Origin: an uncultured Gemmatimonadales bacterium
GTDB lineage: Bacteria > Gemmatimonadota > Gemmatimonadetes > Longimicrobiales > RSA9
Reading direction: 5' to 3'
Assembly (NCBI GenBank): GCA_963708135.1
Contig: OY970192.1
Span: forward strand, 2,784,001 to 2,848,000
Length of the DNA stretch: 64,000 bases
Part shown: in pieces, positions 6,499 through 13,714 of the stretch
How the letters are laid out: each line of letters starts with the position of its first letter
Position numbering within the stretch: the stretch's first letter is position 1
The notes under the pieces: model-generated
The model's input: only the letters and a program-made list of their open reading frames with translations
What the model was told of the DNA's origin: nothing
The model's database searches: none
Program-made: the position numbers and the translations under genes

Positions 6499-9400
6499 CG
6501 GGTGAAGTCGAGGGCGCCGGTCCGCGTTCTCGTCGTGAACGAGAGCGCGAGCGTCCTCGGGGCCGGCTGGTCACTCGCCGGAGTTCAGCGCATCTACGCA
6601 CAGGCGGACGGCTCCGCGCTCATCGTGGATGGCGACGGCGCCGCCGAGTACTTCGCGCGCGGGTCCTGCTCCGCCACGTGTACCTACACACCGCCGCCGG
6701 GGGATTTCACAACACTGACGGGGGGGAACGGCAGCTCCTACACACGGACCGCCCCCGACGGCACCACCGCCAGCTATGATTCCAACGGCCGCCTGACGTC
6801 GGTGGCCGACCGGTTCGGAAACCAGACCATGCTCACATGGAACGGTACGACCGGAACGCTCACCTCGACGACCGATCCCGCCGGCAAGAGCATCACCTTT
6901 GCGTACACCGGCAGCGGCTCGAGCTTGCGCCTTGCCTCGATCTCGGACGCCGGCAGTCCGGCGCGCACCGCCACGGTCGCGATCGATCCGACCGCCTGGA
7001 ACATGACGGCAATTCAGGATGCCGACGGCGTGAACGCGCTTCAGGCGACGTATGATTCCACCCACCGCATGCTGCACCGGACCGACCGCCGCGGCGGTGG
7101 CTGGGGGTTCGCCTACGATGGTAGCGGTAAGATGGCCGCGGACACGGCTCCAGCGGTCGCCGTCAACGGTACGAACGTGCGGCCGGTCACGACCTTCGTC
7201 TCCGCGCTCAGTGCAGCCCTTCCCCCGGCCGGGACCGGCACGAGCTCGAGTCCCGCGCCACGCCGGGTCCCCGCGAATCTACGCGCGACCATCACGAACC
7301 CGCGCGGCTACGCCACGAGTTACGCGCTCGACCGCTTCGGAGCTCCAACACGGATCGAGGAGCCGCTCGGGCGCACGACGCAGCTCGCGCGCAATGCCGC
7401 GTCCCAGGTGACCCGGACGGTTGCGCCGTCTGGACACACGGTGAATTACACCTGGTCGGGCGCCGACCTTACTCAGGTCGCGGATGCGACGACCGGGCGC
7501 ACGATCCACGTCAGCTACACGTCGAGCTATCATGACGTCCAGCACGTCTACGGCAATACCCTGGAGGTCACGAGCTTCTTCGCCGCCTCGGGCAAGACGG
7601 TGGACAGCACGCGCGTGGGTCCCACGGGCACCAAGGCCTCGGTCGACAGCGCCTACGACAGCCGCGGGCGACCTCGTGGTCATCGATCCCGCCGGCCACC
7701 GCAGCGCGTTCACCTACGCCGCGACGGGGTTCCAGAACATGCAGCAGGGGACGATCGGTGCTCGGGTGACCAGCTACACGCCGGACGCCTATGGCCGGAT
7801 CTCGCAGCTCACCGCGCCCGACGGCGCTGTCACGACCCTCGCCTACGACGCGCTGAACCGCGTCAGCCGCAGGGTCGGCCTGACGTTCAACGACACCACG
7901 ACCTACAGCTACGACAACCTCTACCTCACCAAGGTGCGCGATGCCGCTGCGGATAGCGTGCTCTACGGCGCGAACGCCCTCGGCTGGGTGACCAGCCGGA
8001 CCGATCCGACCGGCCATGTCTCGAGCTATGGCTACGACAAGAACGGCAACCGCACCACGGCCGTGAACCGGCGGGGCCAGAGCGTGAGCTTCACCTACGA
8101 CGCGCTGGACGACCTCACGACCCGCGTGGCGGACGGGAGGACGAGCACCTTCGCGACGGACCCGCTCGGCGGCTTCGTCGCCGCGTCCAACGCGGAAAGC
8201 ACGGACACGATCTACTTCGACCCTGCCGGCCGGCCCGCGACGGCGGCCACCTGGCGCGGGGGGACACGCTACGTGCTGGCGTCGCTCTACAACAATCTCG
8301 AGGGGGTGCGGTACACGCTGAAGATGACCGCCCCGTTCACCCGGCAGATCGTCTACGGCTACGATGTGAACGAACAGCTCGACAGCCTCGTGGACCTGGC
8401 GGGAGGGCTGACCACGGTGGGCTACAACGCGGAGCTGCTGGCGGACACGTACACGCTGCCGAACGGGCTCGTAGTGACGAGGAGCTTCCCCTCCACGCAC
8501 GAGACGGCGCAGGTCACCTACAGCAACACCACCGTGAACGGCGCGCTGGGCCTCGAGCTGGGCTACAACACGGCGGGGCAGGTGGACCGGCACATGAACG
8601 TGGCGGAGGACAGCGTCCGCGCGTTCCTCCACGACAGGCTGGGCCGCCTGGCCCAGCTCAGCGACAGCGCCTACACCAGCATGACGTGCAACTTCAGCAA
8701 CGACACCGGGTTCAACAACTGCACCGGCGGCGGCGTGACGTGGAAGGGGACGACCTCGTACGCCTACGACAAGGTCGGCAACCGCACGGATTCCGGCGCG
8801 AGCGTGCAGGTGGGCGACCGCCTCACCGCCTTCGATGGCTACACGCTCGGCTACGACGCCGACGGGAACCTGACGTCGAAGAGCGGCAACGGCGTAAGCC
8901 AGACCCTCTACTGGAACAGCCTGGGCCAGCTCGACAGCGTGAACGCGAACGGCACCATGGTGAGGTTCGGCTACGACGGCCTCGGGCGGCGGGTGCGCAA
9001 GACGGTGGGCAGCACCACGACCACCGCGGTCTACGATGGGGTGAACCTGTTCATGGAGCTGGACGGCTCGGGGCAGCCGCTGCGCGAGTACACGTACTAT
9101 CCGGGCGTGGACCGGCCGCACAGCATGGTCTCCGGCGGTGCGGTGTACTACTATGCGACGGACTTCCCGGGCAACGTGCTCGGGCTGGTCAGCTCGACGA
9201 ACTCGGTGGTGAACCAGTACCGCTACAAGCCCTTCGGCAAATCGGAGCTCGCGAGCGAGGGCGTCACCAATCCGCTGCACTACGCCGCGCGCTATCTGGA
9301 CACGGAGACCGGGCTCTACTACGACCGGGCGAGGTACTACGACCCGAGTCTGGCGCGGTTCGTGAGCCAGGATCCGATCGGGCTGGCGGGCGGGATCAAC

Positions 9401-10008
9401 CCGTATGCGTACGTGGGGAACGATCCGGTGGATGCGCGCGATCCGTTCGGCGCCTGCAAGAATGGGGTTCCGACCTTCAAGTTTTCTGACGGAGGCGTCG
9501 AGATTGACGACTGCCGGCATGCACCGCCCGAGTCCTCCGCTGGACCGCCTGGTATTGGCGCACCGCGGCGTCCGGGCGGCGGAAGTACGCAGAGTCCTTG
9601 TCCGAACTGTGGGGGCGGAGACAACAAAGGGTCCCAAGCACCGACAGCGGGCCGAGCCCGACCAACCAGTGCATTGCTGACGTCGCACAACTCGGCATCA
9701 ACTTCGCCTTCACAGCGGGCGGCCTGACCATACTGACTTTTGAACGGAGTTTGTGGGCGTATCTTGGTGCAGAGACGGCATCTGAAGCGTTGCCGTTCGG
9801 TGCGCGAGCGACTGGTCTTGCCCCGGCTGTGTTCGCACGTACATACGTTCGCTCGGTGCTGCTCGGCGGGAGCAGCTTGGCAGCCGATTACGGTTGGTCG
9901 CGGGGCATGACGATCGCATACAGCGTTGCCAAGGCTACGCCGATAGTCAATCTCGCAGTCGATGCCGCCGAGACGACTACATCGTGCCTTATGAATAGCG
10001 GACACTAA
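6499..10008 (+). pseudogene. Large Rhs protein (module 3), 5'-truncated, frameshifts ~7667 and ~9630, hydrophobic C-terminal tip
   Basis: ORFs 6466-7956, 7484-9727 and 9598-10008 are contiguous Rhs-coding pieces; core end ARYYDPSLARFVSQDPIGLAGGINPYAYVGNDPVDARDPFG. Confidence 0.85.
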
Positions 10009-10489: not shown

Positions 10490-10529
10490 GGAGGGGCTGG
10501 CTCAGCAGAGAGCCAGCCCCTCCTTTTCT
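10490..10529 (+). terminator. Intrinsic terminator
   Basis: Perfect 14-bp stem GGAGGGGCTGGCTC/GAGCCAGCCCCTCC followed by TTTTCT. Confidence 0.8.
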
Positions 10530-10545
10530 CTGTTGTCCGCGTGAG

Positions 10546-10749
10546 CTACGCTCCAGTCCCCGGCCAGTCGTTCTCCGGTGCCAGGCCGCACCGGAACGGC
10601 ATTTCGGAGAGGGTGCCGATCACGTGGTGCAGAGCGGCGACCCACTCGTCGGCGACGCTGGTCGGCCACACGTTGGCGCGCAGGTACGCGTGGGTCTCGA
10701 CGATGTTCGCCCTCGCCTCGTTCTCGATGACGACCTCGTAGTTCTGCAA
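10546..10749 (-). pseudogene. RelE/ParE-family toxin, C-terminally truncated
   Basis: YEVVIENEARANI..YL..ADEWVAAL..IGTLSEMPFRCGLAPE; only 67 aa, lacks the C-terminal strands. Confidence 0.75.
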
Positions 10750-11044
10750 CTACTCGACCGGCTCGCCGACTCCGAGCTGCGCGAAGCGAAGCGAACGCCT
10801 CGTCCAGCGGCTGGCCACGCCCTTGGCGCATGGAGTCGAGGCCGCGGTGGATGCCGAGAAGCGCCTCCGCGCGGTCAAGGCGGTCGAGGAGGCCCTGGTA
10901 CGCCTTGGCGTCCTGAACGGCCAGCTCCGGGACGCCATGGACCGTCAACACCTCGGGAAGGCCGGTCTCCTTCAGCCGCTCCGCGAAGACCTTGGCGTTG
11001 CGCTGGAAGTCGGTGAGCGAGTGGATCTCGTGGGTCTTCATCAT
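10750..11044 (-). pseudogene. Phd/YefM antitoxin with a frameshift near the 3' end
   Basis: IHSLTDFQRNAK..PEVLTVHG..LAVQDAKAYQ; restoring 2 nt in CGCGC at ~10780 gives ..ASLRAQLGVGEPVE* abutting the toxin start. Confidence 0.8.
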
Positions 11045-11091
11045 GCTCCAAGGGGTTCGGCCCCGGCACGAAGCACCGGCTCCACGAAGAC

Positions 11092-11571
11092 CTCCATCAC
11101 CCCGTGTAGGAGGGCCGGCGCGCACCGCGCCAGCCGGCCCTCCCCTGGTGTTGATTCCCCCAACCTACCGCGGCGGTTCCATCGTGTACAGCCGCCGCTC
11201 CTTCGCGAGCGCGAACATGAGGCGCGTCGCCTTCCGCGCGATCGCGACCAGCACCTTCTTCTTCGGCGTGTTCGGGTTCCTCTGGAGCGCCCGCTCGTAG
11301 TCCGCCCGCGTGCTTCCTCTTGCCTGCGTCGACTCCGGCGACGGCGACGCCGCGCTGGGCCCGGCGGCGCTTCTCGAAACGGCTCATGGTCTCGCTCCTG
11401 TTGAAGGCCCAGAGCCGTACCGAGGGCCGCACCGATGGCGGAATCGCGCTCTATGGGGCCCTGAGCGGCTCCTGCCGGGACTGAGGCCGAACCCGGAAGC
11501 GTATCACCGCCGGGATCGAGCGCGGAATCCGGCTGGATAGAAGGCGGTCGAGCGCACCTGAGGCGATGGAG
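11092..11571 (-). mobile_element. Internally deleted (non-autonomous) IS110-family element
   Basis: ATG 11387 with AGGAG RBS encodes an IS110-like N-terminus (VAGVDAGKRKH), joined out of frame at ~11308 to an IS110-like C-terminus (YERALQRNPNTPKKKVLVAIARKATRLMFALAKERRLY, stop 11165); inverted repeats CTCCATCACC (11092) / GGCGATGGAG (11562). Confidence 0.75.
11400..11560 (-). ncRNA. Candidate IS110 bridge-RNA-like structured RNA
   Basis: Non-coding left end upstream of the transposase remnant; nested stems with internal loops by eye (GGCCC/GGGCC, AGAGC/GCTCT, CCGC/GCGG; GCCGGAT/ATCCCGGC); the assignment is positional inference. Confidence 0.35.
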
Positions 11572-11769
11572 CTGCGGGGGGTATGCTGAAGGGTTTGGGT
11601 GTTCGGGACGGGGTCAGGACGGGTGACTGAGACGCTCGCGGCGTGCGCGGGTCCGACCGGTAACCTCGGGCGCGCGGGCCGAGCGTGTCCCGGCGCGGCG
11701 GATCTCGGTTCGCGCCGGGATCGTCGCCGCGCACGGGGACGGGAGGGACGCGGCGAGGCCGGCCGCGGT

Positions 11770-11797
11770 CCCCCACTCCCCCACTCCCCCACTCTCG
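11770..11797. repeat. 8-mer tandem repeat (CCCCCACT)x3; related copies at 19293-19322, 23116-23133, 23272-23299
   Basis: Directly visible; all copies intergenic. Confidence 0.7.
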
Positions 11798-11860
11798 TCA
11801 TCCCGCCGCCGCGCTGCGGAGGCGGCCCGCGCCGGCCGCGAACCGCGACGCTGACGCTAC

Positions 11861-13714
11861 CTACAGATCGCCCGCGGACACCTGGACGCTCGACGCGGGG
11901 CTCTCCGCCCCGGCGTCCGGGTCCTCGCCCGGGTTGATGAAGCGGTTGCGCTCGAGGCGGTACTGCTTGTCGTAGAGGCGGCGGTAGAGGCCGCCGCGCT
12001 CGAGCAGCTCGTCGTGGCTGCCGCTCTCCACGATGCGGCCGTCGTCCATGACCAGGATCTGGTCGGCGCTCATGATGGTGGAGAGGCGGTGCGCGATGAC
12101 GAAGGTCGTGCGCCCCTGGCGCAGCCGGCGCAGCCCGTCCTGGATGAGCGACTCGCTCTCGCTGTCGAGCGAGGAGGTGGCCTCGTCGAGGATCAGGAGG
12201 CGGGGATTGGCGAGCACCGCCCGCGCGATGGCCACGCGCTGCCGCTGGCCGCCGGAAAGCCGCACGCCTCGCTCGCCGACCACGGTGTCGTAGCCCTTCT
12301 CGAAGCGCTCGATGAACTCGTCGCAGTGGGCGAGGCGGCTGGCGGCGCGGATCTCCGCGTGGCTGGCGCCGGGGCTCGCGAAGGCGATGTTCTCGCCCAC
12401 GGTCCCGTCGAAGAGGAAGTTGTCCTGCATGACCACGCCGAGGTGCCGGCGGAAGTCGGCCATGCGCAGCTCGGCCAGGTCGCCGCCATCGACCAGGACC
12501 CGCCCGCGCAGCGGGTGGTTGAACGCCATGACCAGGCTGATGAGCGTGCTCTTGCCGGAGCCGCTCGGGCCCACGAGCGCGGTGGTCGTGCCGGCGGGCG
12601 CGTGGAAGGAGACGTCGCGGAGCACGGGCACGCCCGGGTCGTACTCGAAGGTGACGCGGTCGAAGGCGACGTCGCCCTGCAGGTCCTCGAGCGCGAGCCG
12701 GCCGCGGTCCTCGTCGCCTTCCGTCTTCATGTCCCGGAGCTCGCGGATGCGGTCGAGGCCCGCGAACGCGTCCGTGATCTGGGTGCCGATCGAGGAGATC
12801 TGCACCAGCGGCGCGACCATGAGCCCCTCGAAGAAGACGTAGCGCACGAGGTCGCCGAGGGTCATGGTCCCGCCCAGCACGGCGCGGCCGCCCACGATGA
12901 TGAGCACCACGCCGTTGATCCCCACGATCACGGTCGAGATCGCGGACACCGCGGAGGTGCCGGTGATCGTGCGCGCGACGTTGCGGAAGAGGCGGTGCAC
13001 GCCGTGCGCGAAGACGCGGTCCTCGCGCCGCTCCGCCACGTACGCCTTGAGCACGCGGATCCCGCCCAGCGCCTGCGAGAGCCGCCCCGTCACCTCGGCG
13101 TTGATCTGCCCGCGCTCGCGGAACATCGGCCGCAGCCGCTTGAACGTGTAGGAGGTGATCACCGCGAAGATGCCGAGCAGCACCAGCGTGAAAGCGGTCA
13201 GCTTCCAGTTGAGCCAGAAGAGCACGCCCATGGCGATGACGGCCGTGACCACGCCGCCGGTCAGCTGCACGAGGCCGGTGCCCACCAGGTTCCGGATCCC
13301 CTCCGCGTCCGTCATGATCCGGGAGATCAGGATGCCGGTCTGCGTCTTGTCGAAGTAGCGGATGGGCAGCCGCAGCACGTGCGCCTCCACGCGCTTGCGC
13401 ATGTTGGCGATCGCCCGCTGCCCCGCCACGCTCACCACCTGCGAGAGCACGAAGCCCGTGAGCCCCTGCACGACCGTGGCGCCGCCCACGATGAGCGCGA
13501 CCGGCACCAGCATGTCCGCGCGGCTCTTGCCGATGATCGTGTCGATCACGTAGCCCGAGCTGTAGGGCAGCACCAGCCCCGACAGCCGGTTCACCACCAT
13601 GACGAGGAGCCCCAGCACCATCGAGCGCCGGTGCTCGTAGATCAGCTCGCGCGCCTCCGGCCAGGCCCGCCTGTAGTCGACCTTCTTCTTCCCGTTCCGC
13701 TTCTCGTCCGCCAT
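11861..13714 (-). CDS. ABC exporter, fused permease/ATPase (MsbA/MdlB-like)
   Basis: N-terminal TM domain; Walker A GPSGSGKS, LSGGQRQ, ILDEATSSLD. Confidence 0.95.
   Translation of the reverse strand: MADEKRNGKKKVDYRRAWPEARELIYEHRRSMVLGLLVMVVNRLSGLVLPYSSGYVIDTIIGKSRADMLVPVALIVGGATVVQGLTGFVLSQVVSVAGQRAIANMRKRVEAHVLRLPIRYFDKTQTGILISRIMTDAEGIRNLVGTGLVQLTGGVVTAVIAMGVLFWLNWKLTAFTLVLLGIFAVITSYTFKRLRPMFRERGQINAEVTGRLSQALGGIRVLKAYVAERREDRVFAHGVHRLFRNVARTITGTSAVSAISTVIVGINGVVLIIVGGRAVLGGTMTLGDLVRYVFFEGLMVAPLVQISSIGTQITDAFAGLDRIRELRDMKTEGDEDRGRLALEDLQGDVAFDRVTFEYDPGVPVLRDVSFHAPAGTTTALVGPSGSGKSTLISLVMAFNHPLRGRVLVDGGDLAELRMADFRRHLGVVMQDNFLFDGTVGENIAFASPGASHAEIRAASRLAHCDEFIERFEKGYDTVVGERGVRLSGGQRQRVAIARAVLANPRLLILDEATSSLDSESESLIQDGLRRLRQGRTTFVIAHRLSTIMSADQILVMDDGRIVESGSHDELLERGGLYRRLYDKQYRLERNRFINPGEDPDAGAESPASSVQVSAGDL

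Follow-up and report, generated by a model that had tools for sequence, protein, structure and literature searches.

Near 11 kb of the window, i.e., the whole 64,000-nt stretch of DNA that was analysed, two short pieces of an IS110-like transposase gene lie next to each other, and the question is whether they belong to a miniature mobile element or to the remains of a larger one. The sequence-only reading had drawn the limits at 11092-11571 and had described a non-autonomous IS110 derivative with both ends and a candidate bridge-RNA locus that might be mobilised in trans. Our alignments place the IS110-family homology at 11105-11634 on the minus strand (530 nt). We conclude that the locus is very probably an old IS110-family insertion, or a piece of one, that was stripped of its recombinase, of both termini and of the RNA modules, and that it is inactive and no substrate in trans.

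A BLASTN search of the genome for full-length parents, as had been proposed, yielded two relatives, copy A at 813-817 kb and copy B at 838-840 kb. Genome blastn and alignment divide the fragment into two blocks: in the 5' block (11634-11307), identity is 88% to copy B (838191-838521) and 87% to copy A, and in the 3' block (11306-11105) it is 96% to copy B (839509-839712) as well as to copy A (816255-816458). The internal deletion between them amounts to about 987 nt relative to copy B and about 1011 nt relative to copy A. The ATG at 11387-11385, preceded by a GGAG Shine-Dalgarno motif, starts a run of 27 codons (MSRFEKRRRAQRGVAVAGVDAGKRKHA), which can be aligned to the N-terminal ends of both full-length IS110-family genes and in which GVDAGK supplies the first Asp of the DEDD motif; this residue, D21, is invariant in the protein alignment. 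GCG (11309-11307) is the last N-terminal codon before the junction, after which the sequence runs one base out of frame into the end of the gene, with the stop codon at 11167-11165 on the minus strand. The parts of the fragment are collected in Table 1. A 26-codon N-terminus joined out of frame to about 47 C-terminal codons had been read from the letters, and the alignment bears this out with 27 + 46 codons and about 1 kb missing.

Table 1. Parts of the IS110-family fragment (window coordinates) and landmarks of the full-length copy B (genome coordinates).
Feature	Position	Strand	Description
Leader piece	11388-11634	-	internal 247 nt of the 5' non-coding leader; matches copy B 838191-838440
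Transposase start	11307-11387	-	first 27 codons; GGAG ribosome-binding site ahead
Deletion junction	11306-11307		+/- 2 nt owing to CG microhomology; frame shifted by one base
Transposase end	11165-11305	-	last 46 codons and stop codon (ending ..KKKVLVAIARKATRLMFALAKERRLYTMEPPR, then stop); 96% identity to copies A and B
3' non-coding start	11105-11164	-	first 60 nt; hairpin 11109-11143 with 14-bp arms
Copy B landmarks	left end 838103; ATG 838441; stop ends 839652; box 839940-839947; last module ends 840291		

Three peptides of the fragment were searched against Pfam, and none gave an IS110 match at E <= 10. For the catalytic domain DEDD_Tnp_IS110 the fragment offers 27 codons with the first Asp only. 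For Transposase_20, which carries the catalytic Ser, it offers the last 46 residues only; these lie almost wholly downstream of that domain, which covers residues 285-369 of 412 in copy A. The HMM search that the sequence-only reading had suggested for both peptides thus drew a blank on the peptides themselves, but the full-length copies do match. The 412-aa ORF of copy A contains DEDD_Tnp_IS110 (2.1e-23) and Transposase_20 (2.3e-16), and it scores 178.5 bits against the NCBIfam model NF033542 'IS110 family RNA-guided transposase' (cutoff 140). Copy B scores similarly (DEDD_Tnp_IS110 8.9e-24). Because its own peptides are without a Pfam match, we identify the fragment by its alignment to the full-length copies, i.e., by nucleotide homology to full-length members that flanks the deletion on both sides. 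The IS110-family origin and the internal out-of-frame deletion, both taken from the letters in the sequence-only reading, are therefore well founded.

Copy B (838103-840291; locus L118) measures about 2.2 kb, with a leader of 338 nt and 639 nt of 3' non-coding DNA. It lacks eight codons just past the region of the catalytic Ser, a stretch that is conserved in relatives. In copy A, the 5' leader is split by an IS256-family element (Transposase_mut 1.2e-64) with an 8-bp duplication (CCGCCCGG). Copy A and a third copy, C (70% aa identity), have transposase ORFs free of stop codons. The surroundings of these copies (807-843 kb) are dense in repeats. Besides the IS256-family element in copy A, they contain at least three full-length IS110-family copies and two incomplete ones, and a segment of 8.1 kb is present twice at 98% identity (817914-826017 and 828096-836199), along with other repeats. 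Abutting the left end of copy B, two ORFs on the minus strand (160 and 133 aa; 837221-838101; L002:493-1373) looked, by eye, like a putative toxin and immunity pair of a polymorphic-toxin locus.

Whether the fragment has kept its ends depends on where the family ends. Copies A and B are alike beyond both breakpoints of the fragment and have flanks in common as well, and relatives from outside were therefore required to place the termini. We gathered 8 loci from genomes and 80 loci from metagenomes; in the phylum sample, 10 of 401 genomes, including the window's own, had a match at E <= 1e-60. Ends were placed with the closest metagenome relative, L028 (84% aa identity), together with 32 full-length relatives. 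The 88 nt upstream of the left breakpoint of the fragment are common to L028, A and B, back to ..CCGAA[CG]GGATCGGTATAGG, and upstream of this sequence L028 is unrelated to A and B. A left-end motif, CC[AG][AT]AN[AG]GAT[CTA], occurs in 51 of the 74 loci that extend 480 nt or more ahead of the N-terminal motif. On the other side, 52 of the 67 loci with at least 1750 nt past the N-terminal motif carry a [TC]TGACAAY box at 1200-1750 nt past it. The left flanks of the 32 elements with both signatures have only about 8 nt in common, G[GA]CACAAY. In a primary-sequence comparison of the 5' leaders from 82 loci, alignment beyond the last 70 nt or so is confined to close copies. The leader piece retained in the fragment is conserved among close relatives. 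Conserved DNA around copies A and B was also considered as a repeated target and rejected, as L028 and other relatives carry the same DNA in other contexts. A tRNA scan of four loci, which asked whether the conserved flanks hold an RNA gene, found no tRNA, and Rfam gave 0 matches at E <= 0.1 on three full-length loci.

Measured against these termini, the fragment is truncated at both sides. Its leader comprises 247 nt, corresponding to 250 of the 338 leader nt of copy B, and the outermost 88 nt are absent, i.e., the true left end lies 88 nt outside the fragment. At the other side, homology ends at ...CCTCCTACA, 4 nt past the hairpin 11109-11143, at a point that corresponds to 839712 in copy B. 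The fragment thus retains 60 of the 639 3' non-coding nt of copy B, which continues for another 579 nt. The box of copy B (TTGACAAC) stands 288 nt past the stop codon, the fragment stops 60 nt past it, and the true right end, at the TTGACAAY box, lies at least 235 nt outside. Neither the left-end motif nor the TTGACAAY box nor the downstream RNA modules are present in the fragment. On both strands of the 64 kb, 3 left-end and 6 box-like motif hits were found, none of them adjoining the fragment. A sensitive blastn search of window positions 1-25000 with the first 100 nt of copy B, its distal 598 nt on the 3' side and the deleted part of the ORF gave short matches only (E >= 0.002). The view of an element keeping both ends has to be given up, since left-end motif, box and modules are missing from the fragment and were not found in the first 25 kb of the window.

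That view had been built on a 10-bp inverted repeat with 9 of 10 matches. The repeat exists (11092-11101 and 11562-11571), yet it fails as a pair of element ends: its left arm, 11092-11101, is outside the homology in flanking DNA, and its occurrence is at chance level, a 701-nt region holding 38 inverted pairs of at least 10 nt, with the 9/10 pair outside the 25 longest. The strong 3' hairpin at 11109-11143, in turn, was correctly recognised. The hairpin stretch (71 nt) folds with -39.6 kcal/mol (z = -3.16), and 1 of 200 shuffles was as stable. The hairpin is conserved in A, B and L028, where it is located just past the stop codon, far from the right end of the family.

The retained leader was then the place for a guide RNA, as the sequence-only reading had seen a candidate bridge-RNA locus at 11400-11570 in DNA rich in stems and internal loops. 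The 253 nt of 11636-11384 fold with -87.4 kcal/mol compared with -89.9 +/- 5.0 kcal/mol for shuffles (z = +0.5; 137 of 200 shuffles as stable), i.e., no better than shuffled sequence. RNAalifold on the leader of the fragment and six relatives that share the long leader (7 sequences) returned a covariation term of +0.43 and short helices only, of which the clearest is a hairpin over the ribosome-binding site just ahead of the ATG. The leader is therefore not structureless, as it contains some short conserved hairpins. On 10500-12200, Rfam listed only four unrelated weak matches (E >= 2.6). Loop-bearing stem-loops with covariation, as expected of a bridge or seek RNA, were thus not found at 11 kb by folding, RNAalifold, Rfam or the covariance model R1 described below. 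With no stability signal and no net covariation here, and with the modules of the family 3' of the gene, the bridge-RNA locus at 11400-11570 cannot be upheld; this segment is best read as an internal part of the long 5' leader of the transposase.

A variable hairpin comes after the box in most relatives examined, and behind it stand two or three units of about 75 nt, within about 340 nt past the box. The base stem of each unit has 12 bp (CCGGCGC-G-GATC pairing with GATC-GCGCCGG); beyond it are two internal-loop strands, each of about 14 nt, and a distal hairpin (GAGGCG.. pairing with ..CGCCTC). In an alignment of 36 units from 18 elements, 88.4% of the module cells are paired compared with 34-44% when partner columns are slid. 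Changes on both sides occur in 15 of 21 module pairs, and the covariation score was reached by 0 of 500 shuffles. RNAalifold recovered the same two helices with no structure supplied. Three modules are found in copy B, in copy A (three R1 hits) and in L084, and two in most relatives examined. A first loose regular expression for the module had produced chance hits in coding DNA only.

We built the covariance model R1 from the unit of about 75 nt. At E <= 0.01 it finds 14 modules in the genome, all at 809.5-840.3 kb and beside IS110-family copies or remnants, and the idea of genome-wide REP-like repeats was rejected on this ground. Its best matches in the window reach at most 20.2 bits (E >= 0.045), all of them at 29-47 kb and none near 11 kb. 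An orphan module pair lies at 827103-827295 (73 bits each with R1), with no IS110-family ORF match adjoining it. The modules are shaped like the binding loops of bridge RNAs. A search for 7-mers shared between flank and element in full-length relatives, i.e., for complementarity of loops to DNA, gave no consistent pattern; we therefore infer their function from shape and position, by which they are putatively the bridge RNA of the family.

According to whole-genome searches, the deletion form occurs once in the 5.45-Mb genome, the two halves being joined only here. Several copies with the same deletion, as in a MITE-like family and as the sequence-only reading had proposed to search for, were not found, and a form present once lends no weight to its proposal of mobilisation in trans. 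An empty site was not recovered among 30 relatives from other genera, in which similarity is confined to the ABC-transporter gene next to the fragment; three of these genomes are unpublished and enter this tally only. In run X1, DNA contigs match the fragment and read through the deletion junction with no difference. The contigs of runs X3 and X4 come from relatives in which similarity ends at 11105, 11305/11307 and 11634; these break-offs are as expected for relatives that carry the parts absent from the fragment. Contigs from four DNA runs cover the fragment, and none contains a joint that removes it.

Around the fragment, the window holds further features. A 747-aa ORF with RHS repeats (7484-9727, plus strand; Pfam RHS_repeat 5e-22) is about 1.4 kb away. 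Directly downstream of the fragment are two small overlapping minus-strand ORFs (10505-11044 and 10549-10749), which have no Pfam match at E <= 0.001 and by eye resemble a putative antitoxin and toxin pair. Between the fragment and the end of the ABC-transporter gene (11861) there is a GC-rich imperfect hairpin at 11690-11735 (GCGCGGCGGATCTCGG..CCGGGATCGTCGCCGCGC); its GGATC/GATC is like that of the family module stems, and it has no distal hairpin and no R1 hit. A short tandem run of CCCCCACT x3 occupies intergenic DNA at 11764-11790, upstream of the fragment.

Three other explanations were weighed against that of an inert relic. A miniature IS110 derivative with both ends, carrying a bridge or seek RNA in the upstream 170-250 nt and mobilised in trans, would find stop-free transposase ORFs in the genome (copies A and C), and its retained leader is conserved among close relatives; moreover, function in trans has been reported for a bridge RNA and a short donor (PMC11208160). 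The explanation is already contradicted by the absent termini, since neither the left-end motif nor the TTGACAAY box nor the 3' modules are there; in addition, the inverted repeat is at chance level and partly in flanking DNA, the leader has neither a folding signal nor net covariation, Rfam holds nothing relevant and there is one copy only. We consider it scarcely credible. Co-option of the leader, start codon and hairpin by the downstream ORFs, as a 5' regulatory region, a small ORF or an insulator, is very improbable. It would account for the stable and intact hairpin 11109-11143 close to two small same-strand ORFs that start 60 nt downstream (from 11044), and for an open 111-aa frame (11097-11432) that spans the remnant. 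Against it, 10900-11900 contains 0 sigma-70-like promoters and 0 intrinsic terminators, the 111-aa frame reads through the remnant out of frame and matches no family, the downstream ORFs have no Pfam match at E <= 0.001, and the locus is shared by none of the 30 relatives searched.

The third alternative concerns how the fragment was cut: its outer breakpoints might have been made by the family's own recombinase at look-alike sites, as the product of an aberrant excision or insertion. Here the left breakpoint falls exactly at CGTCTCA[AG]T, which is conserved inside the leader of close relatives and bears a loose likeness to CACAAY, the motif found in the left flanks of the family, and off-target half-match events are described for IS110 recombinases in a bioRxiv preprint (10.64898/2026.08.31.748434). 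The likeness of CGTCTCA[AG]T to CACAAY extends over 4-5 nt only, by inspection, and the right breakpoint, CCTACA|CGGGG, has no convincing match, so that we regard this origin as unlikely. Its wider form, in which all three breakpoints are footprints of the RNA-guided recombinase at internal look-alikes and the locus records aberrant half-matched bridge recombination, appears more doubtful still. For none of the three alternatives, i.e., trans-mobilisation, co-option or recombinase-made breakpoints, did we obtain positive support.

The inert relic is hence the reading that we propose. One old IS110-family insertion of about 2.2 kb, RNA-guided and with a DEDD transposase, would have been reduced to 530 nt by three separate losses. 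An internal deletion of about 1 kb would have taken nearly all of the transposase gene and shifted the frame; another loss would have removed the outer 88 nt of the left end, and a third would have cost the right end its outer 579 nt, where intact relatives have the box and two or three RNA modules. These losses presumably took place in situ after insertion, i.e., the insertion was presumably once complete at this locus. As the fragment lacks a recombinase, terminal sequences and guide-RNA modules, it cannot move, supply a guide or be recognised in trans. A single copy without conserved RNA structure is also what the sequence-only reading itself had named as the mark of an inert relic, and by that standard the fragment is one.

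The full-length relatives resemble IS110 elements with bridge RNA (IS621; IS110 and IS1111 groups) as presented in PMC11208160. They likewise combine DEDD_Tnp_IS110 with Transposase_20, match NF033542 and have long non-coding ends with modules of stem, internal loop and stem-loop. Durrant et al. 2024 (PMC11208160) place the bridge RNA of the IS1111 group 3' of the gene, and the modules of the relatives are placed likewise. In contrast to known IS110 elements, the window fragment is without recombinase domain, termini and modules; the relatives for their part differ in having long non-coding DNA at either end (338 and 639 nt in copy B) and in that some copies have three modules, not two. A second comparison is with ISPpu9 of Pseudomonas putida KT2440 (PMC12288879), in which a transposase module is likewise followed by a separate RNA module (there the small-RNA module ssr9) and other places in the genome hold orphan RNA modules and partial remnants; in the present genome, the orphans are at 827.1-827.3 kb. 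Pares-Guillen et al. 2025 (PMC12288879) report ISPpu9 remnants left by deletion. The modules of ISPpu9 are bounded by A and B boxes and their circles were seen experimentally, whereas the window fragment has no terminal box and is known from its sequence. MITEs, finally, share with the fragment that they are short IS derivatives with an internal deletion and no functional transposase; unlike MITEs, which have both termini and many copies, the fragment has neither terminus and is present in one copy.

For the IS110-family relatives analysed here, recombination may occur at the TTGACAAY box, past the modules, or at both sites, and a use of both box and module end would resemble the modular ISPpu9 (PMC12288879). 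The verdict on the fragment holds wherever the family recombines, because box, left end and module-end sites are all absent from it. It should accordingly be annotated as an IS110-family pseudogene or remnant rather than as a miniature mobile element or a gene for a guide RNA. Its full-length relatives form a clade that was met here mainly in genomes of Gemmatimonadota and in soil or sediment metagenomes; the hallmarks are a left end that is sharply delimited, the invariant TTGACAAY box and two or three 3' modules with covariation. This clade could be studied as a natural variant of bridge-RNA systems, including its orphan modules as in ISPpu9.
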